DNA of 64,000 nucleotides from an uncultured Candidatus Saccharibacteria bacterium (GTDB lineage Bacteria > Patescibacteriota > Minisyncoccia > JAHISW01 > Tagabacteraceae). The stretch covers positions 3,439 to 67,438 of the forward strand of contig CAZRMW010000002.1 of the NCBI GenBank assembly GCA_964601305.1, written 5' to 3'. The notes under the pieces are model-generated. The model searched no databases. It saw only the letters and a program-made list of their open reading frames with translations, and was not told where the DNA came from. Positions 8,699 through 38,837 of the stretch are shown here, in pieces. The position numbers were made by a program, and so were the translations under genes. Position 1 is the stretch's first letter, and every line of letters starts with the position of its first letter.

Positions 8699-9131
8699 AA
8701 AATTAATAGAAGATTTATTAGAGAAATTAACTATTAATGGGAGAGTAGAAACAGAAGAAACAGTGGATGGTCCACAATTTATTATAAGAACTCCAGAAGG
8801 GGGATTGCTTATTGGTGAAAATGGAAAAAATTTAATTTCTTTTAATCATTTAGTAAAAAAAATTATATCTAAAGAAAAAAATAAAGAAGATTCTTTTTCT
8901 TTTTCTTTAGATATAAATGGTTATCAAAATAAAAAAATAGAAGACTTAAAAGATATAGCCAGAGTAAATGCACAAAGAGTAAGATATTTTAAAAAAGAAA
9001 TAATTTTAAAGGCAATGTCTTCTTATGAAAGAAGAATTGTTCATATGGCACTTTCAGATTCTCCCGATATTAGCACAGATAGCATTGGACAAGAGCCAGA
9101 GAGAAAAATTGTTATAAAACCATATCTCTAA
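8673..9131 (+). CDS. jag: Jag/KhpB-like KH plus R3H RNA-binding protein
   Basis: R3H motif region (SSYERRIVHMALSD) and its position after yidC. Confidence 0.7.
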   Translation: MEEKINQIKKLIEDLLEKLTINGRVETEETVDGPQFIIRTPEGGLLIGENGKNLISFNHLVKKIISKEKNKEDSFSFSLDINGYQNKKIEDLKDIARVNAQRVRYFKKEIILKAMSSYERRIVHMALSDSPDISTDSIGQEPERKIVIKPYL

Positions 9132-10312
9132 ATATCTAAACTCCAGAGAGTAAAATCTTTTTTGTTTTGAAAGAAAAGATTGTTTTCATTCTTATCTAAA
9201 AATATATTAATAATATCTAAATTAGAATTATTATAAAGATTTTCTGTTGAACCATCTTTTAAATCTATTTTCCAAATAGAATCATTAAAAGAAATTACTC
9301 CTTTATACCAATCGTCTGGATAATAAGCGGAAGGAATAAAAGAAGGAACTGCACAAAATATTACATCTGTGTTTAATTTACTAAAGATACATTTTTCAGG
9401 TAATGTTTTATAAGACAAAATAGAGATTTTTTTATCACTAGTATTATATATTTTTGTAGAGAGCTCTTTGTTTATTGACTCACTATATATAATTTTATTG
9501 TCATTTGGGGAATGAAGAGTAGTTAACCCTTTTATACCTCCTAATAATTTTGTAAAAGAGTTATTTAAAGGATTTAATTTATATAGAAACCCATCTAAAA
9601 AAGCAGAAGGTTTTGTTTGAAGGGTAATGGTGTTTTTTTGTGGCCAATTAATTAAAAAATTACTATATTCTATTTCTAATATTTCTTTTTTGTTTTTATT
9701 TTCAAAAGTAGAAGTAAAACCAGAAGTTATAATATCTTTCAATAAATAAAATATTTTATTTTCGCTTGATGATACTGTAATTTGAGATGTGTTTAATGGT
9801 AAAAAAACACCAGATGTAGAAGTTGCCAAAGAATTTATAAGAAATGTTTTTACTTGCTCATAATTTTCTTCTTCTTTTATGTCTGTGTATTGAAGTATTA
9901 ATTTTGTAGTATCTTTGGACCAAACGGCATTAAAAATTTTAGGAATTGTATTTATACTTATTTGTTTTTTTTCTTGACCATTATTGTTTATTTCATAAAT
10001 ATGACCAGTAGATTTTTCTATATATTTTATTTTATTCCCATCAAAAACAGCTCCAACAATAGGTAAATTAATAATTTGTTTTAATTTTCCAAATTGTTGT
10101 CCTTCAGAAGTATCTTGAGTTTCTCTTTCAAATACATCGTCTATGGAAATTTGATCAAAAGAAAGTTCTTCTTCATCTGTAGGAAACAAAGTAGAGAAAA
10201 AACCTTTTTCTTCTTTTTTTTCGTCCGATGGCCACAGCAAATAAACCGAAAGAATAGTTATAATAACTAATCCTGTGACTATTCCTATTATTGTTAAATT
10301 TTTTCTAGACAT
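9128..10312 (-). CDS. T4SS-like operon gene 11: N-terminally membrane-anchored extracytoplasmic protein
   Basis: Single N-terminal TM (LTIIGIVTGLVIITILSVYLLW) followed by a large beta-rich domain; last gene of the tightly packed minus-strand operon. Confidence 0.5.
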   Translation of the reverse strand: MSRKNLTIIGIVTGLVIITILSVYLLWPSDEKKEEKGFFSTLFPTDEEELSFDQISIDDVFERETQDTSEGQQFGKLKQIINLPIVGAVFDGNKIKYIEKSTGHIYEINNNGQEKKQISINTIPKIFNAVWSKDTTKLILQYTDIKEEENYEQVKTFLINSLATSTSGVFLPLNTSQITVSSSENKIFYLLKDIITSGFTSTFENKNKKEILEIEYSNFLINWPQKNTITLQTKPSAFLDGFLYKLNPLNNSFTKLLGGIKGLTTLHSPNDNKIIYSESINKELSTKIYNTSDKKISILSYKTLPEKCIFSKLNTDVIFCAVPSFIPSAYYPDDWYKGVISFNDSIWKIDLKDGSTENLYNNSNLDIINIFLDKNENNLFFQNKKDFTLWSLDI

Positions 10313-10323
10313 TTAAATTAAAA

Positions 10324-10896
10324 TTATTTAAAACAACATTCATTTCCCACCTGTGGTCCTGTGATATGTTTTATACATAGGCTATCGTCTGCAGGATTCC
10401 ATCCAGTACCTAATACATTATTATCACTACAACTTTCGTTATTTTGGGTAGAATAATTAGCCCAACTATAGATGTTTCCATCACTAGCTTTTGTTTTTGA
10501 CCCTTGGTTTTTAATTTCAAGTGGTGTAAGGCCTAAATCAAAATTTACTAAATCTGGATTTATAGTATTTAAAATTAAGTAAGAGCCTAAGATTAGTAAA
10601 ATCCCAAGTAAAGCTTGTGTAATCCTTGTTTTTGCTCTTCCTACTGTACTTTCATTTCCTCCGGCTGTGATATATTCAAAACCTCCAACTACTATCATAA
10701 CAACAGCTAAAATAGATCCAAGAACTATAGAAAATTGATATATCCTATTTGCATAGTCGGCTATACTTCCAACAGGTGCTGTTCCTCGCCCAGCGTATTC
10801 AGGGCTTAAAACACTAGCATAAACCAAACTGAAAGAAAAAAAGAATAATATTGTGAAAAGTATTGCGGATAATATGTTATGTGTTTTATGTTTCAT
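10324..10896 (-). CDS. VirB2/TrbC-like pilin-type protein with a Cys-rich C-terminal extension
   Basis: Signal peptide, then two hydrophobic helices separated by a short charged loop (…IYQFSIVLGSILAVVMIVVGGF…RITQALLGILLILGSYLILNTI…), the topology of T4SS pilins. An extra ~80-aa tail carries 6 Cys. Confidence 0.5.
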   Translation of the reverse strand: MKHKTHNILSAILFTILFFFSFSLVYASVLSPEYAGRGTAPVGSIADYANRIYQFSIVLGSILAVVMIVVGGFEYITAGGNESTVGRAKTRITQALLGILLILGSYLILNTINPDLVNFDLGLTPLEIKNQGSKTKASDGNIYSWANYSTQNNESCSDNNVLGTGWNPADDSLCIKHITGPQVGNECCFK

Positions 10897-10905
10897 GTTT
10901 TATGA

Positions 10906-11862
10906 TTAGAAACTTATACTTAATATTTCTTCTGCAAATTGCAAAATATTTGAAATGTTTTTTGAATTAAGATTTATGGTTGTGCTACCAGAAACATCAA
11001 TTGGTTTTTCTAAAAACAAAGTTCTTTTGTTTTTGCTTTCTAAAATTTCTTCATTATTCATATTCCATTCAAATGAAATATCTTCATCTTTTGTTTTTGA
11101 AAAGAAAAATGGTTCAGCAATTATATTAATTGTATCATTTAGTAAAGAAAAAGTATTAACAATGGGATTGTTGTATAAAACCCCTAAAAGTGGATGATCT
11201 TCATAAAAAATTACATTAGGCTCTATGTCGCTTGTAGAAATTCTAGTATTTTTTTCAAAAACAATACTTTTATCAGAATTTGAAATTTTAACACCTATGA
11301 CATTGTCGTTATAATTATCTATAGAAAAATTAAAGGTGTTTTTACCATACCCTGAAGCATTTAAAACTTTTTCATAATTTAAATACCACTCGTATTGTAA
11401 TTTAGATGTTGATAATCTTGATGATCCAGAGTAAATATATGGAATAGCTAACACATCTATTTGTGATTGTACTACTGGTAATGGGCTTCCTAGGTACCAA
11501 TAAGGGGTGTATGTATTTGGCTCTATAAGTATATCTATATCATTTCCTTTTATAGATAAACTTTTGCTAATATTTACACCAGAATCTGTTGTTATATACA
11601 CAGACAAACTTTTTGTTTTTCCTAGGTTTGGCATTTCAAAATTTATCATTTTCTCACCAACACCTTTTTTGACTGTTTTTCCACTTAAAACCCAAGTAAT
11701 ATTACTTCTGTTTACATCAAAACTATTGCTATTTATTTTTAGTGTAGCTTCTTTGTTTGGAAGAGGATAAGAGGGAATAAAATTAACACTAAAATCCTCA
11801 CCAATAGCATAGCTATGTTGAGCAAAGAAGATTAAAAATAATATTGTTAATACTTTTTTCAT
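10906..11862 (-). CDS. secreted protein (signal peptide), T4SS-like operon
   Basis: N-terminal signal peptide MKKVLTILFLIFFAQHSYA; no further recognisable motifs. Confidence 0.5.
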   Translation of the reverse strand: MKKVLTILFLIFFAQHSYAIGEDFSVNFIPSYPLPNKEATLKINSNSFDVNRSNITWVLSGKTVKKGVGEKMINFEMPNLGKTKSLSVYITTDSGVNISKSLSIKGNDIDILIEPNTYTPYWYLGSPLPVVQSQIDVLAIPYIYSGSSRLSTSKLQYEWYLNYEKVLNASGYGKNTFNFSIDNYNDNVIGVKISNSDKSIVFEKNTRISTSDIEPNVIFYEDHPLLGVLYNNPIVNTFSLLNDTINIIAEPFFFSKTKDEDISFEWNMNNEEILESKNKRTLFLEKPIDVSGSTTINLNSKNISNILQFAEEILSISF

Positions 11863-11866
11863 ATTT

Positions 11867-12235
11867 TTATTCTGTATATATTTTTATTAGCGTAGCTCCA
11901 ATGCAAACTGGTAATATTCCTATAAAAAAATCTGCGATACTTCCTAAACCAATTGTATAGGCGGTCTTTGAAATTTTCTTACCACCAAATTTTAAATAAA
12001 GCATTCCTCCCCATATAAAATTAAACACAATAGCAGTGTAGGGAATCAAACCTAAAATATCGAAAAATACTGCCCAAGCTAAAATCATCCAATGTTTAGA
12101 AATCTTTTTTCTAAAAGATAATATATTTATGGCCTCTTTTATTTTTTCAACTTTCTTACTTAAACTCTTTTTTTTCTTTCTAGACTGTTGGAGTTTGAGT
12201 AGGCGGTTGTTTTCTTGTTGTGTTGGTTGGGGCAT
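11867..12235 (-). CDS. small two-TM membrane protein, T4SS-like operon
   Basis: Two hydrophobic helices. The annotated start overlaps the VirB4-like gene by 56 nt, so the true start may be further in. Confidence 0.4.
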   Translation of the reverse strand: MPQPTQQENNRLLKLQQSRKKKKSLSKKVEKIKEAINILSFRKKISKHWMILAWAVFFDILGLIPYTAIVFNFIWGGMLYLKFGGKKISKTAYTIGLGSIADFFIGILPVCIGATLIKIYTE

Positions 12236-14072
12236 TTTGTTGTGGTTGTGTTAATGTTTGTTTGGCTTTTTTAATTGCCAAAAGTTGTCCAGGATCAGAA
12301 GTAATAATTTGGTCTTCAGTATAAGAAGCGATAACTTTTACGGCCACATGTTTTAGGCCGGCAAAAAATATTCCTTCACCCACATCAGATTCTAAAAGTA
12401 AAAATTTTTCTTCATCTGTTAATTTAAATATTTTTTGAAGACCATCTATAGCAGCGGGGGATTGTTTCAACAAAATTTGCATAGCTGAGTTTGTAATAAT
12501 AGGGCTTCCGTAAGGAGACTTTAAAAAATCTCCAACATCTTGAGTAATGGTGGCTAAACCTAGATAATATTTTCTACATCTTTTTGCAATATGTGTTAAA
12601 AAAGATGCTCCATCGTCTGATTTCATCATCCACCAAGCTTCATCAATAACCAAAAGTCTCTTTTTTAATTTTCTTCGAACAGAGTTCCAAATAAAGTGCA
12701 TAATAAGGTACATTGCTACAGGCCGAAGGTCATCTTCCATATCACGAACAGAAAATGTAATAAATTTTTGGTTTATATCTACATTTGTTGGTTGATTTAT
12801 AAATCCGGCCCATGTACCTTGAGTATATTTTTTTAAGTTTTGAGCCATTCTTTCTCCTCCCTCCATACTAGCCAAAACCAATTCTAAATCTGAAAGAATT
12901 GGAGGAACTTTATTTGTAAAATCAGACTCTGGAGTAATATCTCTAGAAGCATATGCTTCTGTAATCCCTCTATCTAAAATAGAATCTTCTTCTGGAGAAA
13001 GACCACCAAGCATTATTCTAAAAAGACCAACAAGATTTATAATATGAGACCTGAGTACATCTGAAGGAGACTCATCTTCTCGAGGCAAAGGCAAATCAAA
13101 AGGATTTATATGATGTTTAGATGTAAGAGAAATATTAAAATAATGTCCTCCCACTGTTTGAGTAAGATATTCGTACTCTTTTTCTGGATCAATAATAATT
13201 ACATCTATGCCATACATTAAAGATCTAAGAACTTCTAATTTCATAGCATAAGATTTTCCAGAACCTGCTTTAGCAAACGTTACGGAGTTATAATTTTCAA
13301 GAGAAAATCTATCAAAAAGAACTAAACTATTATTGTGTCTATTTATTCCATAAAGAATTCCTTTGTTTGAAGTAAGATCAAAAGAAACAAAAGGAAAGAG
13401 ACTAGATACAGGGGAAGAATTCATTTTATTGTGTACACTAAGTTTGTCTTCACCTAAAGGAAAAGATGTTTCTAATCCTTCTGCTTGTTGAAACAGAGCG
13501 GGTTTTGAATAAACAAGCTTTGATTCCATTGAAGATTTTACTTCTTTTTCTACAGAGTCTAATTCTTCTATACTGTCGGCATAAATAGTGATATATAATC
13601 CTAGATTAAAAAGTCTTTCTTGTGCTTGAGTTAGTTTATCTCTTAAATCTTCTAAATCTTGGTAAGCAGTGTCCAGCATAGGGTCTCGTATAAGACTTTT
13701 TTCTTCTCTTATACTAATTTGAGATTGGACTTCAGCAACTTTTTTCTGAAGTTGTTTAAGTACATAAGAGGTATCAACAGGATGAATAAATATAGAAATA
13801 TCAAAAATTTTATCCATATTTATAATTGGAGAAAACCACCCAACAGATAAAAATCTGGGATAACTAAAAACAAAAAGTGTTTTGGCTACTTTGTTTCCAA
13901 GGCGAACATAATTTGGTGTAATCTGCATTGCAGATGGAGCTATAATATCTTGAAGTTCTAGAACACTTTGTGAATGAATATCTTGAGGAAAAACCGGCAA
14001 AATACTTTCTTTTTCTTGCCCTGCTTTGAGAGGTTGTTGTTTCCCTTTTTTAAAAAAATCGAATAATGCCAT
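12180..14072 (-). CDS. VirB4/TrbE/TrsE-family conjugal-transfer ATPase
   Basis: 630 aa with Walker A FAKAGSGKSYAM, Walker B LLVIDEAWWMM, and the VirB4-type N-terminal region; Pro/Thr/Gln-rich C-terminal tail. Confidence 0.75.
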   Translation of the reverse strand: MALFDFFKKGKQQPLKAGQEKESILPVFPQDIHSQSVLELQDIIAPSAMQITPNYVRLGNKVAKTLFVFSYPRFLSVGWFSPIINMDKIFDISIFIHPVDTSYVLKQLQKKVAEVQSQISIREEKSLIRDPMLDTAYQDLEDLRDKLTQAQERLFNLGLYITIYADSIEELDSVEKEVKSSMESKLVYSKPALFQQAEGLETSFPLGEDKLSVHNKMNSSPVSSLFPFVSFDLTSNKGILYGINRHNNSLVLFDRFSLENYNSVTFAKAGSGKSYAMKLEVLRSLMYGIDVIIIDPEKEYEYLTQTVGGHYFNISLTSKHHINPFDLPLPREDESPSDVLRSHIINLVGLFRIMLGGLSPEEDSILDRGITEAYASRDITPESDFTNKVPPILSDLELVLASMEGGERMAQNLKKYTQGTWAGFINQPTNVDINQKFITFSVRDMEDDLRPVAMYLIMHFIWNSVRRKLKKRLLVIDEAWWMMKSDDGASFLTHIAKRCRKYYLGLATITQDVGDFLKSPYGSPIITNSAMQILLKQSPAAIDGLQKIFKLTDEEKFLLLESDVGEGIFFAGLKHVAVKVIASYTEDQIITSDPGQLLAIKKAKQTLTQPQQNAPTNTTRKQPPTQTPTV

Positions 14073-14074
14073 AT

Positions 14075-14743
14075 TTATTGTTGTTTATTAGTTTGTACTA
14101 AAGATGTTTTTTCTGTTTCCCCAGGATTGTATAAGCTGTGAAAAAGCTCTATAAGACCTTCTGTTTCTAATGGCATAGATCTTATGCCTACTCTTGCAAG
14201 TCCTTGTATTACAACGTCTGCTCGTTGTTGAAGTTGTATTTTTCTTTTTTCAAATTCTTCTTGAGGTGTAGTTGTTTGATCTTGTTTCTTTTTGAAAATA
14301 TTTGTAAAAAAATCAGAAACGGGATTTTTTTTAGTTTCAAGTATTGTTGGAGTATATGGTACTACTACATAGAAAGATTTAGTAACAATTTTTGTAGCAG
14401 TTACAAATTCTCTTATAAATTCTATATATTCTTTTGTCTGTATTTTTAAAAGTTCGTCTGTTTGTTCTTGTTCTTTTTGTTTTAAAATATCTATATAACT
14501 TTCTATATTTAATCCTCTAGATTGGATAAAAAATTGTATATGAAAATCTAAAGAGTTTAAAAAGTTTTGGTATTGAAGTATTATGGCTTCCTGCTCTTCT
14601 GTTGATTTTAGCGCGAAGTTTAAAGAAGAGGCCATAATTACCATACGAAGAGAATCGTCTTTTAAAATTAATACATCATCTTTTACTTCTTTTATAGAAA
14701 TAAGTTGTTGTGATGCTTTACTTGTTGTTTGTTGGTCTACCAT
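14075..14743 (-). CDS. hypothetical coiled-coil protein, T4SS-like operon
   Basis: 222 aa, no TM; immediately upstream of the VirB4-like gene with a 2-nt gap. Confidence 0.45.
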   Translation of the reverse strand: MVDQQTTSKASQQLISIKEVKDDVLILKDDSLRMVIMASSLNFALKSTEEQEAIILQYQNFLNSLDFHIQFFIQSRGLNIESYIDILKQKEQEQTDELLKIQTKEYIEFIREFVTATKIVTKSFYVVVPYTPTILETKKNPVSDFFTNIFKKKQDQTTTPQEEFEKRKIQLQQRADVVIQGLARVGIRSMPLETEGLIELFHSLYNPGETEKTSLVQTNKQQ

Positions 14744-15168
14744 TATTTTTCTTGTTTATTATCTGATTTTATATCTAAACTCCATGCTAAATCGCTAAGT
14801 TTTTCTTTTGTTAATTTAGGAGCTACAACTTGTTGTACTTGGGAAGGTTGTGTTTCAGGTTTCTTAATAACCTCTTTTTTAGGTGTCCTCGGTTGTTTTT
14901 TCCATGTATAAATTTTGTTTTTGGTAAAATAACTAAAAGCGTTTTCTAAAACTACTATAAAAGGTTTGTTGTTTATTTTGTAGAAGGCGAGTGCGGCTGC
15001 TAAAGCTGCAACAGGGATAGCAAGTAGTACAAATATAAAAAATGGGAAAATAATATAAAGTAAAAATATTATAGCACCTCCTCCAACAAGATAGATAAAT
15101 TGTTTGAGTGTTAGCGGCCCAAATATTTTATCTTCTACTTCTATAAATTGTGGCACTTGATATCTCAT
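14743..15168 (-). CDS. small membrane protein, possibly VirB3-like
   Basis: 141 aa with hydrophobic hairpin IIFLLYIIFPFFIFVLLAIPVAALAAALAFY, sitting upstream of the VirB4-like gene as VirB3 typically does. Confidence 0.4.
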   Translation of the reverse strand: MRYQVPQFIEVEDKIFGPLTLKQFIYLVGGGAIIFLLYIIFPFFIFVLLAIPVAALAAALAFYKINNKPFIVVLENAFSYFTKNKIYTWKKQPRTPKKEVIKKPETQPSQVQQVVAPKLTKEKLSDLAWSLDIKSDNKQEK

Positions 15169-15201
15169 TGTTTTATTTTATCACTAAATCTTTTAAATCT
15201 C

Positions 15202-15852
15202 CTAGTTTGTAGGTTCGCGGTATGGATCAGATCCTTTATATTTTGGTTCTGAAACAGGAGCTCGGTGCACTTCTTTTGTTCTTTTTTCAAAAATTTTATT
15301 GTCCCGTTTTTGTTTATTATTTATGTCAAACTTTTTAGGCAATGTTTGTGTGGGTGTAGGCTTTGTAGGTAGGGGAGATATTGGTTTTGATTCGGCAGTA
15401 GGGGAAGATTTTGGTATTTCTAAAACAGGTTCGCTTTTTTCTTCTTGATTTTTAACTGTAAATGTTTGTTGGGGTGTAATTATAGAAGACACAGGAGGTG
15501 TTGGTGTTTCTGTCTTCAGGGTTTCTTCTTCCTGACTATGAATTTTTCTTAAAGAACCTCTTATTTTTTTAAAAATCTTTTCGTTTATTTCGTGCGCAAT
15601 TTTTTTTGCTACCTCGTTGTCTATTTCCATTCTTGTAGCTAGGTTTTTTATAAAATTATTTGGGTGAGTAACTCCAAGCATAAATAAACCAGTTTCGTCT
15701 GTCATCGTGCTCGTTTTCATCGTTGTCAATTTATTTTCTTGCCCAATTTTTTGGAGAATTTCTCCTGTTTCTGAAGCCGAATAAGATCTCTGTATATCAG
15801 GAGGTAACTTACTAATTTTTTCTTGTAATTGTTGGAGTGTTAATTTTGCCAT
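15202..15852 (-). CDS. hypothetical protein with Pro/Thr-rich linker, T4SS-like operon
   Basis: 216 aa, no TM, low-complexity PT-rich C-terminal half. Confidence 0.45.
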   Translation of the reverse strand: MAKLTLQQLQEKISKLPPDIQRSYSASETGEILQKIGQENKLTTMKTSTMTDETGLFMLGVTHPNNFIKNLATRMEIDNEVAKKIAHEINEKIFKKIRGSLRKIHSQEEETLKTETPTPPVSSIITPQQTFTVKNQEEKSEPVLEIPKSSPTAESKPISPLPTKPTPTQTLPKKFDINNKQKRDNKIFEKRTKEVHRAPVSEPKYKGSDPYREPTN

Positions 15853-15853
15853 T

Positions 15854-17611
15854 TTATCTATATTGGTCTAATATGTTTGTTCCTTGTGGGGTGAGAGCCC
15901 AAGCCGCTGCAGATTTATTACCCGCTGTTTTTAAGGCTTGTGCTATCGTGTTAGGATCTCCCCCTAGACTATTTAAATGTTTGAACATAGTTTCAGCAGC
16001 GAAACCACCTTTGTTTGAAATATCAGAAAGCTCCTTGTTGCTAATGGTTTTTTGAAGATTACTAAGTTCGGATTGTGTAATTGTTGCTGCTCCAGCATTG
16101 TCTTTTTTTCCAAGTTTTCCAATATCTTTTCCTCTTTGTACTTTTCCATATTCTTTCTTTGTCTTTTCGAACTCTTCTATCCCTAATGCTCCAGTGTCTT
16201 TATGTGTAAGTTTGTCATAAGTTTTCTGGAAACTATCATCTGCTTCGACTAATTGCACCCTTTCTCTTGCGCTCATTTTTCTAAACATTTCGTCTCGGGC
16301 TTTTTTATCTTGTAAGCGCCCTTGCCCTAGTCTTGTTAAATACTCAGCTCTTTGTTTTGGAGAGAGAGTCATACCCCTTGCTACTAATTGATCTATTTCT
16401 TCTTTTCTTCCCCCAACCTCAGATATTTTTCTTAATCTGTCTGCTGTCCACCCACCAACAACAGGAGATCTTGCGGTGAGTTTTTCTAATTGTGGATTTA
16501 TGTATTTTTCTCCAGCTCTGGCAACAGTAGCTCTTGCTGCAAATTTACCAACATTTCCTGCATAGCCTTGGAGTTTTCCTTTAGTCCAATTTGCTGCTTG
16601 CACACCCATACTGGCACTTTTGTCTCCCATAATTTTAGCAATTTGTAGACACCCAAGCATTAAGATAATAAGAGTTACATAATTTACAAAAATTGCAGTG
16701 TTTGATGGGTCCATTATAAACCCATTAAAACCATCTTTGCTTCTGCCAAGTATTCCGTGTATTCCATTTGTAGACTCTATGGTTTTAACCACCAAATAAA
16801 ACATAAAAAGAAAGGCAGGGGCAAAGAAAGCTTGATTAAAAAGTCTTTTAAACCAGTCTTGGAAGTGTGTTTCAGTTTTTGGAAGTATGTTTGCTACAAA
16901 AGCCAAGGGAGCAAGAATCATAAGTATAGACAATACCACAGATCGTAAAATAAACATTATTCCTCCAGCAAACAAAGTGAACGCTGTTACAAGAGATATG
17001 GTGCATGCAAAAAGATAGGTTAAGATAACTCTCATCGTTGCTTGAGTTCCTGTTTGAAATGTATTTTCTGTTTTTGGAAAAACTGTCTGTGGTTCTATGC
17101 CACTAACAAAAGTTTCAGACAAACTCACATTTGCCGATGGTTTTATATTGTTGTAAAATTCTTGAGCCAAAACATTTGAGGCGCTAATAACTGTTTGGCT
17201 TATTATTAAACTAAAATTTACAAGAAGGGCTATAATAATTACTTTTACTAAAAGCTCTTTTACACCATAGCCACTAATTTGCAAAATTGTAGCAATACCA
17301 ATATATATCAAAATAAATATAAAACAGAGGTTTGCCAAATCTCTTGAAATTCTCCAACCATCTTCTACAAGACCCGAGCCTTGAAGTGCGGAGTTGTTTA
17401 TAGATACATTTATAGCTGCATCAAAGAAAAATCCAGAGGCAGCAAGAACCCAATTGCAGACAAGGAAAGCCATACTTCCGATGGCTGCGGGAAAATATGA
17501 AAATCCCTTATCAACCATATCCCAAAATCCAACAGCATGGGTAGTCTTTGGTCCTAAAAATACCCCAAGCGCAACTATAACTATTAAAATGTATGGTAAA
17601 TATTTTTTCAT
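15854..17611 (-). CDS. VirB6/TrbL-like polytopic membrane protein
   Basis: Signal peptide, more than 6 TM helices, and a long hydrophilic C-terminal domain. This is a VirB6-like topology; no sequence motif was checked. Confidence 0.5.
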   Translation of the reverse strand: MKKYLPYILIVIVALGVFLGPKTTHAVGFWDMVDKGFSYFPAAIGSMAFLVCNWVLAASGFFFDAAINVSINNSALQGSGLVEDGWRISRDLANLCFIFILIYIGIATILQISGYGVKELLVKVIIIALLVNFSLIISQTVISASNVLAQEFYNNIKPSANVSLSETFVSGIEPQTVFPKTENTFQTGTQATMRVILTYLFACTISLVTAFTLFAGGIMFILRSVVLSILMILAPLAFVANILPKTETHFQDWFKRLFNQAFFAPAFLFMFYLVVKTIESTNGIHGILGRSKDGFNGFIMDPSNTAIFVNYVTLIILMLGCLQIAKIMGDKSASMGVQAANWTKGKLQGYAGNVGKFAARATVARAGEKYINPQLEKLTARSPVVGGWTADRLRKISEVGGRKEEIDQLVARGMTLSPKQRAEYLTRLGQGRLQDKKARDEMFRKMSARERVQLVEADDSFQKTYDKLTHKDTGALGIEEFEKTKKEYGKVQRGKDIGKLGKKDNAGAATITQSELSNLQKTISNKELSDISNKGGFAAETMFKHLNSLGGDPNTIAQALKTAGNKSAAAWALTPQGTNILDQYR

Positions 17612-17614
17612 CTT

Positions 17615-19225
17615 TTATATATTGGTTACTCCTCCACCTCCCCCTCCTGGTGGTCCATCAGAGCCACTGTTAGAACCACTATCGTCGCTGTCATCACTTG
17701 TTCCCCCTCCGCCAGTGCTACTAAAATTCACAATGATTTTTTTAGTTTCTGTGTCGTAAAGTTCTTCGTTGTCTTGAACTCTTAAAATAATTGTCTTTTG
17801 TGTTGCTGATTTATATTTAATTTGTAATTCTCCTGGCTTAGCATCGCTTGGAATTTGAATTGAGAAGTCTCCTCCAGGGGTTGTAATACCAGCACCTTCA
17901 ACAATTTTTTCAAAAGTTCCATTTTTATCTTCATCTGTTGCCCACCAGTCGTATATTCCATCTCCATCAAAATCCCATTCATAAGAAATTATTTGGTTAG
18001 AGCTGTCGTTATCTTTAGAGTCCGATGGGTCTAGAGTAAAAAAGATACCTTCTGTTATTTGTATAATACCTTTTGGATTTACATCAAATTTTGCGATTGG
18101 TTTTGTAGATCCTCCTGTTGTTTGGGAAGTAGAAGAGTCTCCATTAGAACCGCTAGCTATAGCAGCCTCTACAGCAGCTTGATTAAATTCAAATGAAGGA
18201 GTTCCGTCGTAAAGTCCTGAGTTTTCTATGGCAGAAGCGTCACCACTACTGCTTATATCATCAGAGGTAAGGGCTGCAACCCCATCGTTTATAAGTCTAT
18301 TTATAAGCGCGTCTGTGATAGCTACCATATATGATTCCCACTCTTCGTTACTCATCAACCAGTCTACAGCACTATACGTGGCTTTCGAAAATCCTTCTCC
18401 TATTGTTTGAGCAGGTGTTCTTGTTTCCCACCTTGCGCAAGTGTATCCATTTGGTATATCTTCTTCTTTCCATGTGCCACTTTTGCTCCCATTTCTGCTT
18501 ATAACTTCTCTACAAACCTTATCATTTCTAAATCCTCCACCGGCCATCGCCTCATTTTTAGCAGCTTCTTCTGCTTCCTCTTCTTTTATAAACATTTCTT
18601 CCATTGTTATTAAATAAACTCCGTAAGGGTTGTTTTGATTTTCTGCAATTTTTATCCAAGCGTCCCAACCTCCATTTCCAAAATCGTTCATATAGTCGTT
18701 CCAAGCTACACCTATATCTGAAAGAGTACACTTTGTGGTGTTTTTAAATCTTTGCGGTGTGTTTAAGCCTATGTATATGTGTGGCGCCCAGTTTGGATTA
18801 CACAAACTATTCATTACATCAGGTCCAAGCATTTGCTCTAGTACTTGCCCTCCAGCCTGGTCTCCAATGTCTGTAAGAAAAGATTTCCAGTCTGAAACAA
18901 ATTTTGGTTTTCCACCTCCCTGTATCCAAGTAATTATTTCATTAGTAATTGTGTCTAGTAGGAGTTTTCTAAATTTTGCCATAGCTATTCTCATAAGAGT
19001 TTGGTCTTCGTCCCATGCCCATTTAAAAAGTTCAAACTTTTTTTTCCAAGCAAACTCTACAGCATCTCTTACTATTTGAGTAATTTGATCCCATACAGTT
19101 GCACAGTTTGAACAAAAAATGGCCTCTGTTTTTTTAGGATAGAGCAACCCACTTGTTAGAGAAAAACAGAAAAAAATCAGCAAGACTGTGGCAAAGGATT
19201 TTTGGTTGTTTTTAAAAAAATACAT
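17615..19225 (-). CDS. secreted protein with PKD domain and Gly-rich C-terminal tail
   Basis: Signal peptide; the PKD hallmark YEWDFDGDG; C-terminal GGGGTSDDSDDSGSNSGSDGPPGGGGGG. The start codon overlaps the upstream gene's stop by 1 nt (TAATG). Confidence 0.55.
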   Translation of the reverse strand: MYFFKNNQKSFATVLLIFFCFSLTSGLLYPKKTEAIFCSNCATVWDQITQIVRDAVEFAWKKKFELFKWAWDEDQTLMRIAMAKFRKLLLDTITNEIITWIQGGGKPKFVSDWKSFLTDIGDQAGGQVLEQMLGPDVMNSLCNPNWAPHIYIGLNTPQRFKNTTKCTLSDIGVAWNDYMNDFGNGGWDAWIKIAENQNNPYGVYLITMEEMFIKEEEAEEAAKNEAMAGGGFRNDKVCREVISRNGSKSGTWKEEDIPNGYTCARWETRTPAQTIGEGFSKATYSAVDWLMSNEEWESYMVAITDALINRLINDGVAALTSDDISSSGDASAIENSGLYDGTPSFEFNQAAVEAAIASGSNGDSSTSQTTGGSTKPIAKFDVNPKGIIQITEGIFFTLDPSDSKDNDSSNQIISYEWDFDGDGIYDWWATDEDKNGTFEKIVEGAGITTPGGDFSIQIPSDAKPGELQIKYKSATQKTIILRVQDNEELYDTETKKIIVNFSSTGGGGTSDDSDDSGSNSGSDGPPGGGGGGVTNI

Positions 19226-20322
19226 TATTGTGTCAGTTTTTTTTCAGCTAACTTTAAAAAATTGTTTATTAATTTTGACATTTCTTCTCTAATTTTTTGG
19301 TTTTCCTCTAGAGATAAGATTGTTCGTAGTGGGTCATCCTTAATTTTTTTAATATTTTCATATACTTTTTGTGTTGCTATAAAAAGCTCAACTTCTCTTT
19401 TGTGAATTTCTAAAAAATCAGATGGCACTAAAACTTTTTTCATATTTTTTGCAGAAATTTTGTAGTGTTCTATAAAATCGTCTATTTTTTTAAAATTTTC
19501 TGTTTGTATTGCTTCTTCTAAAATATCTTCTTCTGTTTCTTTGTGTGGTATTTCTGGAATAGCATCACCAACAGCTAATAGATATTTATTTATAGATGCT
19601 GGAGAATTATCTGAAGTAATTTTAAATTCAGAAGCTGGAATTTTTGTATAAAAACCAGATACAAAAGCAAGGAGTCCTTGATTGGTGTCTGAATCTAAAA
19701 GAGCAAAAACATTTTCTGTTTCAATTTGGTCTATTTGGGAAGGGTCTTTTATGTGCGAGCTAATAGTTTGCGCAAAGCTCTGTGTAAGATTTGAGTTTTC
19801 TGAGGCTGTTTTTGTATAAACTGGCGCCTTCTCAGATTTTTTACCGGTGTCTGGATTTGAGAGTGGGTCTAGCGGATCGTACCCAGATTGTGTTTCTTTT
19901 CCATCAGTGTGTCCGTCTTCGTCTGTGTCTGGATTATTTACATCTGTTTTCCAGAGAGTTTCCTCCCAATCTCTTAGACCATCTTCGTCGGTATCTAGAT
20001 TAACTTTTTCAACCATTTTAGGTGTGAGTAGGGCAGAAGTTTTTTCGTAAATTGTTTTTGGCTCTTTGTTTTTTACAAATAAAAACCAGCTTCCTAAGCC
20101 AAAAATGCCCAGCCCAAGCAGGATTACCAAAATAATTATTATTTTGTTTTTCACCCTTTTATTGTACCACTTTTTTATGGCTTTATTGTTGAGTTTTTTG
20201 GGGATAATTATTGTGTATTGACAAAATAAGCAAAAAATGCTTTTATGTGTAGAGAAAACGAGATAAATCTCGCCAGAGGCGAGTAAATTTTTAAAAAATA
20301 AATACAAATTTTTGAAAGCCAC
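19225..20322 (-). CDS. membrane-anchored protein with thrombospondin type-3-like Ca-binding repeats (first gene of the T4SS-like operon)
   Basis: TM segment IIIILVILLGLGIFGLGSWFLF followed by DTDEDGLRDWEE...NPDTDEDGHTDGKE (DxDxDG repeats). The annotated GTG start at 20322 and the first ~55 codons are doubtful; the real start is probably near 20160. Confidence 0.5.
   Translation of the reverse strand: MAFKNLYLFFKNLLASGEIYLVFSTHKSIFCLFCQYTIIIPKKLNNKAIKKWYNKRVKNKIIIILVILLGLGIFGLGSWFLFVKNKEPKTIYEKTSALLTPKMVEKVNLDTDEDGLRDWEETLWKTDVNNPDTDEDGHTDGKETQSGYDPLDPLSNPDTGKKSEKAPVYTKTASENSNLTQSFAQTISSHIKDPSQIDQIETENVFALLDSDTNQGLLAFVSGFYTKIPASEFKITSDNSPASINKYLLAVGDAIPEIPHKETEEDILEEAIQTENFKKIDDFIEHYKISAKNMKKVLVPSDFLEIHKREVELFIATQKVYENIKKIKDDPLRTILSLEENQKIREEMSKLINNFLKLAEKKLTQ
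20265..20284. repeat. hairpin repeat AAATCTCGCCAGAGGCGAGT, copy 1
   Basis: Identical 20-mer at 58495-58514; stem CTCGCC/GGCGAG. Lies in the leader of the T4SS-like operon. Confidence 0.6.
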
Positions 20323-20364
20323 GCCGCAAATTGTATATGCAGGCGGGCAAGGAGGTGTGAAATG
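20316..20364 (+). promoter_or_regulatory. conserved GC-rich leader element, copy 1 (AAGCCACGCCGCA ... TATATGCAGGCGGGCAAGGAGG)
   Basis: Near-identical to 45475-45527; ends in the extended SD AAGGAGGTG 8 nt before the ATG at 20362. Confidence 0.55.
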
Positions 20365-21123
20365 ACTTTTAGGTGGCAGGTTATACTGGCTATTTTCTTT
20401 CTGTCGTTAATGGCTGTAATGATGCTTGGTGGCTGTGCTGCAACTAAAATCCAAAAAGAGGCGTATGTTGGGAGTCAAAAAGCTGCTGAAATGTCGGCTA
20501 AGGTGGCTGCCATAAACAATGCAAAATTGGCTGGGGTTAATCCCGATTGGATTGCTGATCGGTTGGACATTCCAAGAGAGGCTATTAATTCTGGTGGAGG
20601 CAACGAATTTATGCCCGTGGTTTCTTCTTCAAGAAAAGCCTTTATGGGGCCTGTAAGAGAGGAGTTTAACAATATCACCCGAGGAGCTCTCGGCTCTGTG
20701 GGCGCTGCAGCTATTGGTGGATATTTCTACGAAAGGGGCCAAAAGGTTGCCGGAGAGTACTACGAAAAAGGCCAGGCGGCACGCCGTCCGTCTAATTTGT
20801 CGGTAAATACTGGAATAGGTGTAAGTGCTGGAATTTCTCCCAGTGTTACCAGTGGACAGTCTGGAGGCACAACAGTCTCAACTCAACCAACAGCACCTGT
20901 TGTTGTAAGTGTCCCAGGTTCTGGCACTAACACAACAAGCTCCAGTAATAATTCGTCTTCGACCACAACATCATCGACGACATATTATTACAACACTCCT
21001 TCTACAACGACTGGTCCTGGTGTTGTCATTTACAACCCGCCTATAGTGGGGCCCACACCAACGAGCCCGTCAACCACAACTCCAAGCGGTGGCCCTGCGG
21101 GAGGTGCAAATCACGAAGATTAA
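20362..21123 (+). CDS. lipoprotein with Ser/Thr-rich C-terminal region
   Basis: Lipobox MMLGGCAAT, a Gly-rich middle section, and an S/T/P-rich C-terminus; GC content is noticeably higher than the flanks. Confidence 0.6.
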   Translation: MTFRWQVILAIFFLSLMAVMMLGGCAATKIQKEAYVGSQKAAEMSAKVAAINNAKLAGVNPDWIADRLDIPREAINSGGGNEFMPVVSSSRKAFMGPVREEFNNITRGALGSVGAAAIGGYFYERGQKVAGEYYEKGQAARRPSNLSVNTGIGVSAGISPSVTSGQSGGTTVSTQPTAPVVVSVPGSGTNTTSSSNNSSSTTTSSTTYYYNTPSTTTGPGVVIYNPPIVGPTPTSPSTTTPSGGPAGGANHED

Positions 21124-21198
21124 AAGCAAGGGGAAGGCTTTCAAAGCTAACCCCTTGCATCTCATCTTGAAATCCTTAGTATTTACTTAATTAAGGAT

Positions 21199-22413
21199 TT
21201 GAATATGGGATTAATAATTATGAAAAATATGAATAAAATTAAATATATAGTTTCTACAGTGTTTATTTTCGCTGTTTTTATGGCGCCTACAAGTGTAGCT
21301 TTGGCCGATTCTTATATAAATTTAAATAGTCATCCATTAGATTTTGAGACCTTAAGAGTCGGAAATGTAACGCAAAACCCAAACACCACAAGCGCAGATT
21401 GGGGTACTTCAGTTTATGCAAATCCTGGAGATGTATTGTCTTTAGCTATTTATTACCACAATGCTACAGATAAAACTGCTCAGCATTTGAGGGTTCATCT
21501 TGTCCCTAAAAATAGTTTGGCAGAAGCAAAAATACATGTTTTTAAGGCAGAAATTTGGTCAAATCAACACAAACTTGTTTCTGGAAACATTACAATAAAA
21601 CTTTCAGAGCCAAGAAGAATTGATTATATAAAAGACTCTGTAGTATGGAGACCAAACCAAACTATTTATAGCTCACAAAACCTGCTTTTTGGTCAAAATC
21701 CAGACAATATTTTTACAAACGGAATAATTTTAGGAGATATTTATCCAGGATGGAGTACACAGGGAAATGTAGTAGTCGGTTTTAAAGTTGCTCAAAATGG
21801 AAACAGTGTAGCTCCTACAAATACAACTTCAAACAATTCTGTAAAAACAGTTTATGTGCCAGTAAACAACAATATTGGGTCCCCGTTTTTTATAGAAAAA
21901 GAAGTTGAGAATGTAGACAACCCAAACGGTACCGATTTAGAAGTAGCAGCCAAGAGGGGTGATCTTGTGAAGTTTAAAATTACCGTAAGAAATATTAGCG
22001 ATAGAGAACTTTACAATATAGAAGTAATAGATGAAATTTCTAATTTCTTAAGATTTGTAAACAGCGAGGAAGAAAATAGCGACTTTACTCAAAAGAAAAT
22101 TATTTGGAATATAGACAAACTTAGTCCTAAGGAAAAAAGAGAATTAGTTTTAGAAACTATTGTTGCTGATGACGCAGAATTTGAAGGTGTGATTAAAAAC
22201 GGGGGAGAAAGAACCACAGCTGAACTGAATGGGAAAATTCAAACATCAAACGAAGTGTTTGTGAGGGTTTCTAAAAGTGTAAATATTTTTGGGCCAATTG
22301 GTGGGTTAGCCGCTGGTTTGTGGAATTTTGGCTCTAATGTGCTTTATTATCTGGGTATTTTAGCCTTTATAATTCTAGCTATTTGGGGAACTCTAAAATT
22401 CGCCAAAAAATAA
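21199..22413 (+). CDS. cell-surface protein (signal peptide plus C-terminal TM anchor), DUF11-like repeat domain
   Basis: N-terminal signal peptide, beta-rich repeats, and a C-terminal hydrophobic anchor IGGLAAGLWNFGSNVLYYLGILAFIILAIWG followed by KFAKK. Confidence 0.5.
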   Translation: MNMGLIIMKNMNKIKYIVSTVFIFAVFMAPTSVALADSYINLNSHPLDFETLRVGNVTQNPNTTSADWGTSVYANPGDVLSLAIYYHNATDKTAQHLRVHLVPKNSLAEAKIHVFKAEIWSNQHKLVSGNITIKLSEPRRIDYIKDSVVWRPNQTIYSSQNLLFGQNPDNIFTNGIILGDIYPGWSTQGNVVVGFKVAQNGNSVAPTNTTSNNSVKTVYVPVNNNIGSPFFIEKEVENVDNPNGTDLEVAAKRGDLVKFKITVRNISDRELYNIEVIDEISNFLRFVNSEEENSDFTQKKIIWNIDKLSPKEKRELVLETIVADDAEFEGVIKNGGERTTAELNGKIQTSNEVFVRVSKSVNIFGPIGGLAAGLWNFGSNVLYYLGILAFIILAIWGTLKFAKK

Positions 22414-22417
22414 TAAC

Positions 22418-22528
22418 TATCGACATCCGATGTCGATAATTGAATATATGGCTTAAAATGGTAGAAACCACCTAAATGTAGAGCTACATTTAGGTGGTTT
22501 GTATCTGTTGGAAGCTAAGCTTCCAACA
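22418..22528. repeat. three consecutive perfect hairpins
   Basis: TATCGACATCCGATGTCGATA (22418-22438); a 17-bp stem AAACCACCTAAATGTAG...CTACATTTAGGTGGTTT (22465-22500); the palindrome TGTTGGAAGCTAAGCTTCCAACA (22506-22528). Confidence 0.7.
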
Positions 22529-22554
22529 GGTGAGAGGGAGTCTATTTGTGAGCT

Positions 22555-22581
22555 TGACAAAGTACATAGATGTAGTATAAT
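22555..22581 (+). promoter_or_regulatory. sigma70-type promoter (TTGACA, 15-nt spacer, TATAAT)
   Basis: TTGACA at 22555-22560 and TATAAT at 22576-22581, upstream of ORF 22671. Confidence 0.5.
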
Positions 22582-22670
22582 GTAGATAGAAAATAAAAGC
22601 CCCCGCCGAGCGGGGTAAATTGAAAACATAAATATAGATTTTTTGACAGCCTGCGGGCGGGGAGGTTCTG

Positions 22671-23081
22671 ATGAATTTTTATGACAGACCGATGAGTTCA
22701 TTGTCTTGGTTTATGGTCGGCTTCTGCCTCATTTTTGCACTTTTTGTACAGGGGTGTGGAGTACGTCTTCCTGTAGTAAGAATTCAGGAGGTACCAACAA
22801 TTTCGGGATTTTTTTACAACTACAAGGTTATGAATGGTCTTGGAAAACAAGTCCAGTTCACCTACAAAGGTCAGTTGTACACCTTGGATCCAGGAGCTCA
22901 TGCGAATATTCGTATCCCAATGCATGGGCGCAGACAGGAGATTGTTCTACCGATGATGGTCTATGATGGGCCAGACATGGTAGGAACGAAAGGTGTTAAA
23001 ATTTGGATTCCCAAGTTGTTTTCCAATGCATCAGCAAAGGAGGGATTTACCCATATTACGAGTTTTATAAAATTCCGGTGA
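22671..23081 (+). CDS. small putative lipoprotein
   Basis: 136 aa; hydrophobic N-terminus ending FALFVQGCG; preceded by the promoter and the GGGCGGGGAGG SD-like motif; followed by an intrinsic terminator at about 23105-23145; GC content is elevated. Confidence 0.5.
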   Translation: MNFYDRPMSSLSWFMVGFCLIFALFVQGCGVRLPVVRIQEVPTISGFFYNYKVMNGLGKQVQFTYKGQLYTLDPGAHANIRIPMHGRRQEIVLPMMVYDGPDMVGTKGVKIWIPKLFSNASAKEGFTHITSFIKFR

Positions 23082-29123: not shown

Positions 29124-29175
29124 ATCGAAAAGCCTTATGTACTATGCCAAGCGCGGCAAGTATGAGGCTTTTTAT
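29124..29175. repeat. ~50-nt terminator-containing repeat, copy 2
   Basis: See copy 1; its 3' half resembles the terminator at 28596-28642. Confidence 0.65.
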
Positions 29176-38805: not shown

Positions 38806-38837
38806 TCGCTAAGTGTGATTTATCCCGCTCGGCGGGG

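Follow-up and report, generated by a model that had tools for sequence, protein, structure and literature searches.

Introduction

What kind of T4SS is encoded by the eleven genes that lie beside dnaA in this genome, and what does it do for the cell? The original prediction, made on the window (the whole 64-kb stretch of DNA analysed), described a chromosomally fixed, non-mobile, T4SS-derived apparatus and implied that it was new. We conclude that the block is very probably a vertically inherited, origin-proximal Patescibacteria T4SS in its Parcubacteria/Paceibacteria arrangement, descended from monoderm MPF-FATA conjugation machinery whose DNA-processing parts were lost. The system is already known and the block is a typical example of it, with the missing relaxase, the pilin and the dnaA position included: relaxase-free, dnaA-adjacent Patescibacteria T4SSs with VirB4, TrsD, PrgI, VirB6 and VirB2-like pilins were published in 2023-2025 (Wang et al. 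2023, Cell, PMC10633639; Quinonero-Coronel et al. 2025, Microb Genom, PMC12102498; and a 2025 FEMS review), and the implied newness does not survive. The same system, with the same gene set and near-dnaA position, was found in 2,407 assemblies (PMC12102498).

Tn-seq in Southlakia epibionticum showed that epibiotic growth requires the T4SS and its pilins, and this species has no recognisable coupling protein or relaxase (PMC10633639; PMC12857230). These essentiality data come from Saccharimonadia only, a different class from Paceibacteria. A cultured Microgenomatia strain is reported to form tubular connections with its host, possibly T4SS pili, and to take up host RNA (bioRxiv 10.64898/2026.06.21.733656).

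An eleven-gene block in a fixed chromosomal position

ORF calling across the 64-kb window fills positions 9128-20322 with eleven minus-strand ORFs, and JGI calls the identical 11 genes on the source contig, which bears out the predicted gene count and extent. The genes are as follows:

9128..10312, minus strand: g1, 394 aa, TM anchor, disordered linker and beta-propeller
10324..10896, minus strand: g2, 190 aa, VirB2-like T4SS pilin (Pfam PF18895)
10906..11862, minus strand: g3, 318 aa, secreted or anchored, with what are probably three Ig-like repeats in tandem
11867..12235, minus strand: g4, 122 aa, small, hydrophobic, apparently a membrane protein
12180..14072, minus strand: g5, 630 aa, VirB4 ATPase of the CD1110 / MPF-FATA type
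14075..14743, minus strand: g6, 222 aa, TrsD-like, homologue of the VirB4 N-terminal domain
14743..15168, minus strand: g7, 141 aa, PrgI-family membrane protein, VirB3 equivalent
15202..15852, minus strand: g8, 216 aa, presumably cytoplasmic, C-terminal DPYREP motif
15854..17611, minus strand: g9, 585 aa, extended VirB6/TrbL-like polytopic membrane protein
17615..19225, minus strand: g10, 536 aa, TM/signal, helical domain, PKD-like beta-sandwich and poly-Gly tail
19225..20322, minus strand: g11, up to 365 aa, TM anchor, TSP3-like repeats and C-terminal domain

The predicted spacing holds for most of the block (gaps of 1-33 nt and two 1-nt overlaps), but it did not cover one exception, the 122-aa g4 (11867-12235), which shares 56 nt with the 3' end of virB4. 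The block lies 1.8 kb from the end of dnaA (7287), and ksgA occupies 23123-23935; the chromosomal setting near dnaA, dnaN, rnpA and ksgA is thus present here, with the same neighbours in related loci.

We compared this neighbourhood across 80 GTDB species representatives of the Parcubacteria/Paceibacteria group. The order uvrD-ksgA-g11-g10-VirB6-g8-PrgI-TrsD-VirB4-g4-g3-pilin-g1-jag-yidC-rnpA-dnaA-dnaN is near-identical in nearly all 80, with dnaA found downstream of g1 in 55 loci and most of the other loci truncated. Because gene order is nearly unchanged in 80 genomes, we conclude that the block is vertically inherited and is not a mobile element, in agreement with the original prediction and with published work (PMC12102498; PMC10633639). 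Over these loci, median identity is 70% for VirB4 versus 49% for DnaA, 48% for UvrD and 36% for DnaN, and the exposed parts of the system are only 26-39% identical. Selection on VirB4 is strong, and across the 80 loci its constraint exceeds that on DnaA.

The predicted absence of conjugation genes from the locus and its surroundings also stands. Twenty further ORFs of the window, ten that adjoin the block or are 450 aa or longer and ten of 136-391 aa, gave no relaxase, T4CP (VirD4/TcpA) or VirB11 in a Pfam scan. No integrase lies in or beside the block, the closest tyrosine recombinase being XerC/D-like and 17 kb away; no att-like repeats flank it, just AT-rich chance repeats, and there is no compositional break at its edges. 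A published survey counted 5,713 VirD4 homologues in 2,918 Patescibacteria genomes, mostly far from virB4, and a T4CP could be encoded elsewhere in this genome, outside the 64-kb window.

A predicted cytoplasmic-membrane translocon

Four of the genes are predicted to encode a cytoplasmic-membrane translocon comprising VirB4, a separate TrsD-like protein, PrgI/VirB3 and an extended VirB6. The VirB4 assignment in the original prediction is upheld by a match to the NCBIfam CD1110 family (NF045971; 365 bits, cutoff 325, over model positions 181-732 of 752), by a Pfam P-loop_TraG match (9e-26), and by Walker A (AKAGSGKS) and Walker B (LLVIDE) motifs; against the VirB4 and TrbE equivalog models the protein stays far below cutoff. 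All 80 loci contain a match. Database searches returned more than 8000 VirB4 relatives, of which the best 120 are 71-84% identical, besides the 100% self-match, and among the matches listed the organism names are Patescibacteria/Parcubacteria lineages or just 'bacterium'.

Two nucleotides upstream of virB4, g6 resembles the N-terminal part of VirB4 models (Mbov_0397 positions 98-247 at 2.6e-10; CD1110 positions 2-117 at 5.6e-7), matches TrsD/TraD under the curated cutoff (2.5e-4), and carries a precomputed match to the TraC-like PF26593. All 80 loci have it, with a median identity of 49%. We assign it as a TrsD-like, separate copy of the VirB4 N-terminal domain and the fifth T4SS part of the block. 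The original prediction had overlooked this gene.

The protein described as small, membrane-bound and VirB3-like proves to match Pfam PrgI (1.2e-10; 42.2 bits, cutoff 27) and TcpE (2e-4), with matches in 76 of the 80 loci. The two-helix VirB2/TrbC-like pilin is likewise corroborated: it matches T4SS_pilin (PF18895) with 29.7 bits against a cutoff of 26.6, and TrbC at 0.0012. A signal peptide and two TM helices are followed by a 70-aa C-terminal tail with 4 Cys; homologues, matched in 67/80 loci, keep this core and vary in their extensions, for a total length of 106-582 aa. It is the sole pilin gene in the window.

The VirB6/TrbL claim stands in part. At family level g9 is likely a VirB6/TrbL, with TrbL matched by 7 of 37 syntenic orthologues (best 1.3e-7), but the window sequence itself stays below the Pfam cutoff (1.4e-4, 22.2 bits against 25.9). 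Its other matches are CD3337/EF1877 (2e-4) and a weak precomputed TrbL_3. Orthologues, with matches in 62 of 80 loci, range from 416 to 1195 aa, and the C-terminus of g9 is a hydrophilic region of ~250 aa.

Six accessory proteins

The remaining genes (g1, g3, g4, g8, g10 and g11) are as syntenic as the core and encode six co-inherited accessory proteins, of which g1, g3, g10 and g11 are predicted to be exposed outside the cell. Such proteins are indeed without counterparts in canonical T4SSs, as the original prediction held, but their peculiarity was overstated: they are conserved and not particular to this locus, and the genes are already drawn, as unannotated genes, in the published neighbourhood.

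An AlphaFold2 model of g1 (pLDDT 88.9) consists of an N-terminal TM anchor, a disordered linker and a beta-propeller predicted to face outward, for which the best Foldseek matches are WD40/TolB-type propellers (~1e-9). Matches occur in 68 of 80 loci, and in these g1 invariably closes the block; PD40 is present in one homologue and PG_binding_1 in two. The g3 protein, matched in 78/80 loci, is secreted or anchored and probably has three tandem Ig-like repeats, each putative repeat containing an invariant Trp (W56, W158 and W265); the Ig-like matches are weak (Hoc at 0.0067; BiPBP_C in 5 of 37 members).

Direct tblastn finds g4 in only 4 of 80 loci. An ORF of at least 70 aa nevertheless occupies the g4 position in 43 of the 64 loci where VirB4 and g3 were both mapped, and 39 of 44 g4 sequences, the window's included, join one BLAST cluster. 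It is apparently a small, hydrophobic, fast-evolving membrane protein. The g8 protein has no hydrophobic segment and is presumably cytoplasmic. Its N-terminal ~100 aa form a conserved domain, which a Pro-rich linker separates from the nearly invariant C-terminal DPYREP motif, in which P209 is invariant and D208, Y210 and E212 are conserved in at least 90% of an alignment of 38 orthologues. Matches were found in 45 of 80 loci, and searches of Pfam and the PDB returned no relatives.

In g10, a conserved helical domain (residues ~42-314), without a Pfam or PDB sequence match, is joined by a disordered linker to a beta-sandwich (388-500). The PKD domain claimed for this protein is supported by fold: AlphaFold2 models the sandwich with confidence and Foldseek places a PKD domain first (5e-5), with 22% identity to the ColG PKD. 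Although the window protein has no Pfam match for PKD, 10 of 45 homologues match PKD_4. The N-terminal domain defines a family of ~3,700 cluster representatives that is without a Pfam model, whose adhesin-type ends are interchangeable, the end at the window locus being PKD-like.

For g11, homologues begin near residue 57 (~position 20153); the GTG start at 20322 probably lies upstream of the true one, and the true length is probably about 309 aa. The claimed TSP3 Ca-binding repeats are weak in the single sequence (Pfam TSP3_bac 0.008; NCBIfam MtsD/CglD 0.002) but emerge from a profile of 20 orthologues, which matches the Bap Ca-binding region (6e-8) and has the consensus DTDxDGLxDWEExLWGTDPxNPDTDGDG. 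The C-terminal domain is predicted, from its sequence only, to be helical and has no family match. Matches by tblastn, in 24 of 80 loci, are invariably to the first gene of the block.

Proposed mechanism and alternatives

In canonical VirB/F T4SSs, pilus biogenesis needs VirB4 and no coupling protein. Here, VirB4 would extract pilin and drive its polymerisation into a pilus or tube, the exposed accessory proteins would carry the structure across the wall and bind the host cell, and the resulting T4SS structure would support a host-dependent (epibiotic) lifestyle. As to the direction of transport, our rough apportioning would give import of host macromolecules (nucleic acids) into the epibiont the largest share, though short of half, and effector export the next; adhesion only and other functions would take small, equal shares. 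The arguments that favour import over export are indirect.

We further propose, as an unlikely conjecture, that the six accessory proteins form a Paceibacteria-specific, wall-spanning, host-binding module that replaces VirB8, VirB1, VirB5 and the coupling protein, that g10 sits at the pilus tip as a VirB5-like adhesin whose exchangeable end determines host range, and that the machine, working in reverse, is an essential channel through which host nucleic acids are imported. If true, this would account for VirB4 being more conserved than DnaA.

The best-placed alternative is effector export, in which proteins are passed into the host cell or onto it in order to subvert it, in the manner of pathogen T4SSs and with the pilus as a delivery needle; we regard this as possible but somewhat doubtful. 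Researchers in the field have proposed it (PMC11665869; PMC10633639), some T4SSs, such as Ptl and Brucella VirB, export proteins with no coupling protein (PMC12102498, PMC12857230), and fast-evolving exposed parts with swappable adhesin domains fit a host-specific interaction. However, the conserved block holds no candidate effector or chaperone genes, all 11 genes looking structural, and no T4CP that could recruit substrates is present in the window. The very high conservation of VirB4 across hosts is neutral on this point.

A VirB2-type pilus that only attaches the cell to its host, or moves it, with nothing in transit, is a distinctly unlikely account. The presence of a pilin in the block, the adhesin-type domains on g10 and its homologues, and the need of canonical pilus biogenesis for VirB4 but not for a T4CP all agree with it; against it, these organisms also have type IV pili, which in Saccharibacteria already give adhesion and motility, and in that group the T4SS is independently essential (PMC10633639; PMC11665869). 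An extended, VirB6-like channel subunit has also been kept.

H. pylori ComB and archaeal Ced are T4SS-derived importers without a T4CP, and the original prediction suggested, as one option, DNA uptake with the block co-operating with ComEC and ComM, a role that would be analogous to ComB. This is very improbable. Both proteins are encoded within the window (ComM at 29172-30701, ComEC at 44042-45490) and VirB4 weakly matches CedB (2.9e-10), but ComM and ComEC lie 9 kb and 24 kb from the block and outside the mapped conserved neighbourhood, whose limits in the 80 loci are ksgA-uvrD and dnaA-dnaN, and the CedB match of 39 bits is far under the family cutoff of 700 (CedD, 23 bits against 600). Further, comEC in S. 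epibionticum is required for transformation and dispensable for growth, whereas the T4SS is essential (PMC10633639; PMC12857230); its essential role therefore does not run via ComEC.

Finally, that the block is an integrated conjugative element, ordinary or in decay, with its relaxase and T4CP outside the window is hardly credible: CD1110-type VirB4 is typical of Firmicutes ICEs, just 64 kb of the genome is visible and relaxases do occur in a small number of Patescibacteria (109 in 103 genomes; PMC12102498), but the constant position and order of the block between housekeeping genes in 80 species, the conservation of VirB4 above DnaA, the lack of an integrase, att repeat or compositional break at its edges, and a published VirB4 tree of vertical, class-specific descent (PMC12102498) bring this reading close to refutation.

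Essential in the single species tested and near-universal across a huge bacterial radiation, the Patescibacteria T4SS poses a genuine question of role and cargo. The locus described here is no new kind of system, and our additions concern its accessory genes. It offers a clean Paceibacteria template: the 11 genes in constant order, five families of accessory proteins describable by fold or motif, the ~3,700-representative family of the g10 N-terminal domain with its interchangeable adhesin domains, and the stronger constraint on VirB4 than on DnaA. These are useful leads for studying the machine, short of discovery.

Comparison with known systems

Relative to MPF-T VirB/VirD4 systems (Agrobacterium, R388), the locus has functional equivalents of VirB2, VirB3, VirB4 and, probably, VirB6, whereas VirB1, B5, B7, B8, B9, B10, B11 and VirD4 were not detected at the locus and the cell envelope is monoderm. 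Like it, the ComB and Ced systems use a VirB4-type ATPase and have neither T4CP nor relaxase, and they give a precedent for inward transport; they differ in that CedB is matched so far below its cutoff, ComB-type VirB7-10 proteins are absent here, the mapped conserved neighbourhood has no ComEC linkage, and import by the present system is a proposal.

The monoderm MPF-FATA systems (pCF10 Prg/Pcf, pGO1/pSK41 Trs, C. difficile CTn2 CD1110) are closer. VirB4 here passes the CD1110 cutoff, pGO1 also has a separate TrsD-like protein, the PrgI-type VirB3 is common to both, VirB6 is weakly CD3337/EF1877-like, and neither has an outer-membrane core (VirB7/9/10). Unlike them, the block lacks a relaxase, T4CP, oriT, VirB8-like protein (PrgL/TcpC) and PrgK-type hydrolase, has a VirB2-type pilin that is missing from Gram-positive systems, and occupies an origin-adjacent chromosomal locus, not a plasmid or ICE.

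Closest of all is the published Patescibacteria-clade T4SS (PMC12102498; S. epibionticum SEML1_0006-0019, PMC10633639). The block differs from it in having one pilin gene with a Cys tail, versus arrays of 2-11 pilins mainly in Saccharimonadia and Microgenomatia, and in lacking, within the block, genes for a VirB1-like hydrolase or a VirB8-like protein; g1, g3, g8, g10 and g11 are without functional description in those papers. None of these differences is essential. As here, the published system combines an MPF-FATA-related VirB4 and adjoining TrsD with PrgI/VirB3 and a VirB2-like PF18895 pilin, has no relaxase or T4CP nearby, and is chromosomal and vertically inherited beside dnaA, dnaN, rnpA and ksgA; its VirB6 likely has a counterpart in g9.

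An eleven-gene block beside dnaA

ORF calling fills positions 9128-20322 of the window with 11 minus-strand genes (g1 to g11, numbered by rising coordinate), the number originally predicted, and the JGI gene calls for the source metagenome contig comprise the identical 11 genes. The predicted spacing holds for the gaps of 1-33 nt and for two 1-nt overlaps; it fails at g4 (122 aa), which overlaps the 3′ end of virB4 by 56 nt. The gene extents also need one correction: orthologues of g11 start at KNK immediately ahead of the TM helix, and on this alignment the GTG start at 20322 probably lies ~56 codons too far upstream. The block is preceded by the following genes:

4576-5676, minus strand, dnaN
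5899-7287, minus strand, dnaA
7557-9131, plus strand, rnpA, yidC and jag

Scans for promoters and terminators did not outperform shuffled sequence. The dnaA-dnaN intergenic region (5745-5898) holds a cluster of five 9-mers that resemble a DnaA box with one mismatch, which suggests that oriC lies between these two genes. If so, transcription of the 11-kb T4SS operon would run towards the origin and meet the rightward fork head-on. The operon has the same orientation relative to dnaA and dnaN in related loci, and a head-on arrangement, if oriC is placed correctly, bears on the published gene-dosage idea.

Core secretion components

VirB4 (g5, 630 aa) scores 365 bits against the NCBIfam model 'VirB4-like conjugal transfer ATPase, CD1110 family' (curated cutoff 325), with an alignment that covers model positions 181-732 of 752; it also matches Pfam P-loop_TraG (9e-26) and carries both Walker A and Walker B motifs. 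Directly upstream of virB4, g6 (222 aa) matches the N-terminal positions 2-117 of CD1110, positions 98-247 of the Mbov_0397 VirB4 model (2.6e-10) and TrsD/TraD (2.5e-4). The product of g7 (141 aa) belongs to the PrgI family (42 bits, cutoff 27), and the g2 pilin (190 aa) to T4SS_pilin, PF18895 (29.7, threshold 26.6). The VirB4, VirB3-like and pilin assignments of the original prediction are therefore above their cutoffs; the TrsD-like g6 had been overlooked.

The polytopic g9 (585 aa), first read as VirB6/TrbL-like, itself falls slightly below the TrbL cutoff (22.2 vs 25.9). Support for the assignment comes from its relatives: 7 of 37 syntenic orthologues match TrbL (best 1.3e-7), and the precomputed annotation of g9 is TrbL_3. 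With ~250 hydrophilic residues at its C-terminal end, g9 would be an 'extended' VirB6. Among g3, g4 and g8 no VirB8-like component was recognised; g3 appears Ig-like, g8 lacks relatives and g4 is small and hydrophobic. A pilin-core HMM run over the window recovered g2 alone and no second pilin gene. In the pilin genes of the related loci the core, a signal peptide with two TM helices, is conserved; species differ in total length, from 106 to 582 aa, through variable extensions before or after the core that often contain Cys.

Accessory proteins

In the confident g1 model (394 aa, pLDDT 88.9) a disordered linker joins a TM helix to a beta-propeller, for which WD40 and TolB propellers are the best fold matches (~1e-9). 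In g3 (318 aa) a signal peptide precedes three putative repeats that each have one invariant Trp; its Ig-like matches are only weak. In g8 (216 aa), which has no TM segment and is presumably cytoplasmic, a conserved N-terminal domain and a Pro-rich linker lead to a nearly invariant C-terminal DPYREP; a search for family matches found none, and this tail might be a docking peptide. In g11 a TM anchor is followed by a DTDxDGLxDWEE...DTDGDG repeat, whose profile matches the Bap Ca-binding region at 6e-8; its C-terminal domain has no family match.

In g10 (536 aa), a TM helix and a helical domain of ~270 aa are followed by a disordered linker and a beta-sandwich. The best match of the beta-sandwich is a PKD domain (Foldseek 5e-5; 22% identity to the ColG PKD). 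The helical part is modelled at moderate confidence only (pLDDT 66); it has no Pfam family, and searches for PDB relatives with profiles built from 45 and from 105 homologues gave coiled-coil noise only. These same absences leave the reading of g10 as a VirB5-like protein or a hydrolase without support. The N-terminal helical domain (residues 1-340) nonetheless defines a family with 3,676 cluster representatives (E<=1e-3), whose members bear exchangeable carbohydrate-binding or Ig-type domains at the C terminus. Among 45 homologues the C-terminal end swaps the PKD-like domain for CHB_HEX_C/Fn3_assoc in 19 and PKD_4 in 10, and F5/8-type-C or Ig-like ends are also found. A putative machine-docking module that is conserved, joined to a binding module that is exchangeable, is the pattern expected of an adhesin.

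Conservation and synteny

VirB4 has >8000 database relatives, the best 71-84% identical, and the named organisms among the matches listed are Patescibacteria, Parcubacteria, Paceibacterota and Taga-, Giovannoni- and Niyogibacteria. Scanning a single genome for each GTDB species yielded the 80 related loci; their record titles are the submitters' wording, those with a lineage name being Parcubacteria groups and many TPA MAGs being titled 'Saccharibacteria'.

Related loci with a match to each block protein (tblastn, all window proteins against 80 loci)
VirB4: 80/80
TrsD: 80/80
g3: 78/80
PrgI: 76/80
g1: 68/80
Pilin: 67/80
VirB6: 62/80
g8: 45/80
g10: 43/80
g11: 24/80
g4: 4/80

At the g4 position, an ORF is present in 43 of the 64 loci in which both VirB4 and g3 could be mapped, and 39 of 44 sequences from this position join one BLAST cluster. 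The order uvrD-ksgA-g11-g10-VirB6-g8-PrgI-TrsD-VirB4-(g4)-g3-pilin-g1-jag-yidC-rnpA-dnaA-dnaN is unchanged in nearly all sufficiently long loci. This constancy of order and position shows the block to be fixed and vertically inherited.

The same synteny, across 80 species, bears on mobility. A relaxase, VirD4/TcpA, VirB11 and an adjacent integrase are all missing from the Pfam-scanned ORFs of the window, as originally predicted for the block and its surroundings; no att-like repeats were found in the window, and no compositional break at the block. Because of the synteny, the missing relaxase, coupling protein and integrase, and the lack of att-like repeats, an integrated conjugative element is rejected, and the view of a non-mobile, chromosomally fixed T4SS-derived apparatus is upheld.

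Median identities over these 80 loci place VirB4 (70%) well above its housekeeping neighbours (DnaA 49%, UvrD 48%, KsgA 44%, YidC 42%, DnaN 36%). PrgI stands at 50% and TrsD at 49%; the exposed parts (g1, g3, pilin, VirB6, g10, g11) range over 26-39%. That the T4SS ATPase surpasses the replication initiator in conservation is consistent with an essential role of housekeeping type, and fast-evolving surface parts fit host interaction.

Possible function

Judged by its matches, the gene set shows a predicted monoderm-type inner translocon plus a pilin, with DNA-processing parts absent nearby. In VirB and F systems, VirB4 by itself is able to power the extraction of pilin and the assembly of a pilus; because it suffices, a pilus or tube would be the minimal product here. 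Inward transport by machines derived from a T4SS has two precedents, ComB and Ced, both without relaxase or coupling protein. In Southlakia epibionticum the T4SS is essential though comEC is dispensable (PMC10633639; PMC12857230), a 2024 PNAS perspective puts the T4SS forward as a route by which nucleotides may be acquired (PMC11665869), and a cultured Microgenomatia strain is reported to have tubular host connections and to take up host RNA (2026 preprint, 10.64898/2026.06.21.733656), the connections being, by its authors' suggestion, maybe T4SS pili. On these grounds we lean tentatively, at less than even odds, towards import of host macromolecules. Effector export seems somewhat unlikely, and a role in adhesion only is improbable.

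Joint action with comEC and comM, also proposed originally, is contradicted by the S. epibionticum genetics; in the window ComM lies 9 kb and ComEC 24 kb from the block, and neither is among the neighbours mapped in related loci.

Other features of the window

Three plus-strand genes lie between g11 and ksgA:

within 20362-23081, plus strand, 253-aa S/T/P-rich secreted protein
within 20362-23081, plus strand, 404-aa DUF11/CLIPPER surface protein with a C-terminal TM helix
within 20362-23081, plus strand, 136-aa lipoprotein-like protein

All three lack matches in the 80 related loci, whose ksgA directly adjoins g11, and the GC content of the stretch is ~0.39 against ~0.3 nearby. Surface-protein genes appear to have been inserted at the head of the T4SS operon in this lineage specifically. 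Two copies, 92% identical, of a 25-nt palindromic sequence (TCTGTTGGAAGC..GCTTCCAACA) are present, one intergenic after the DUF11 gene (22504-22528) and the other within ksgA (23315-23339).

Directly past uvrD and 6 kb from the block, 26539-27522 (plus strand) encodes a LysM + M23 peptidase; some VirB1-like proteins carry M23/LysM domains (PMC12102498), and a wall-remodelling partner of the T4SS is possible. PNPase (32218-34380) lies 12 kb from the T4SS, and PNPase and VirB4 have been tied to feeding on host RNA in the phylum (2026 preprint). An XerC/D-like tyrosine recombinase (37301-38182) adjoins four tRNA genes (38583-40535). Directly upstream of comEC sits a BRO-N domain protein (42635-43573) that may be a phage remnant, and a tmRNA gene occupies 53608-53957.

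Comparison with described systems

The essential T4SS of S. epibionticum (SEML1_0006-0019; Wang et al. 2023, PMC10633639) is nearest to Gram-positive conjugative systems, yet it includes pilins, and neither a coupling protein nor a relaxase is recognisable in it (PMC10633639). In a survey of 3,035 genomes, VirB4 of Patescibacteria formed one monophyletic clade within MPF-FATA (Quinonero-Coronel et al. 2025, PMC12102498), with TrsD, PrgI/VirB3, VirB6 and VirB2-like (PF18895) pilins near virB4, relaxases nearly all absent, and the Paceibacteria and Microgenomatia cluster near dnaA, dnaN, rnpA, ksgA and rpmH (PMC12102498). The Patescibacteria T4SS has since been put forward as a new member of the T4SS superfamily (2025 FEMS review, PMC12857230). 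The locus described here shares with that system (PMC12102498) a TrsD-like protein, PrgI/VirB3, a PF18895 pilin and proximity to dnaA, dnaN, rnpA and ksgA; g9, below the TrbL cutoff itself, is its likely VirB6. Because system, gene set and position were already published, the original reading is right but not new, and what it leaves of value is the description of the accessory families and the contrast in conservation. The locus is a typical Paceibacteria example of this published system.
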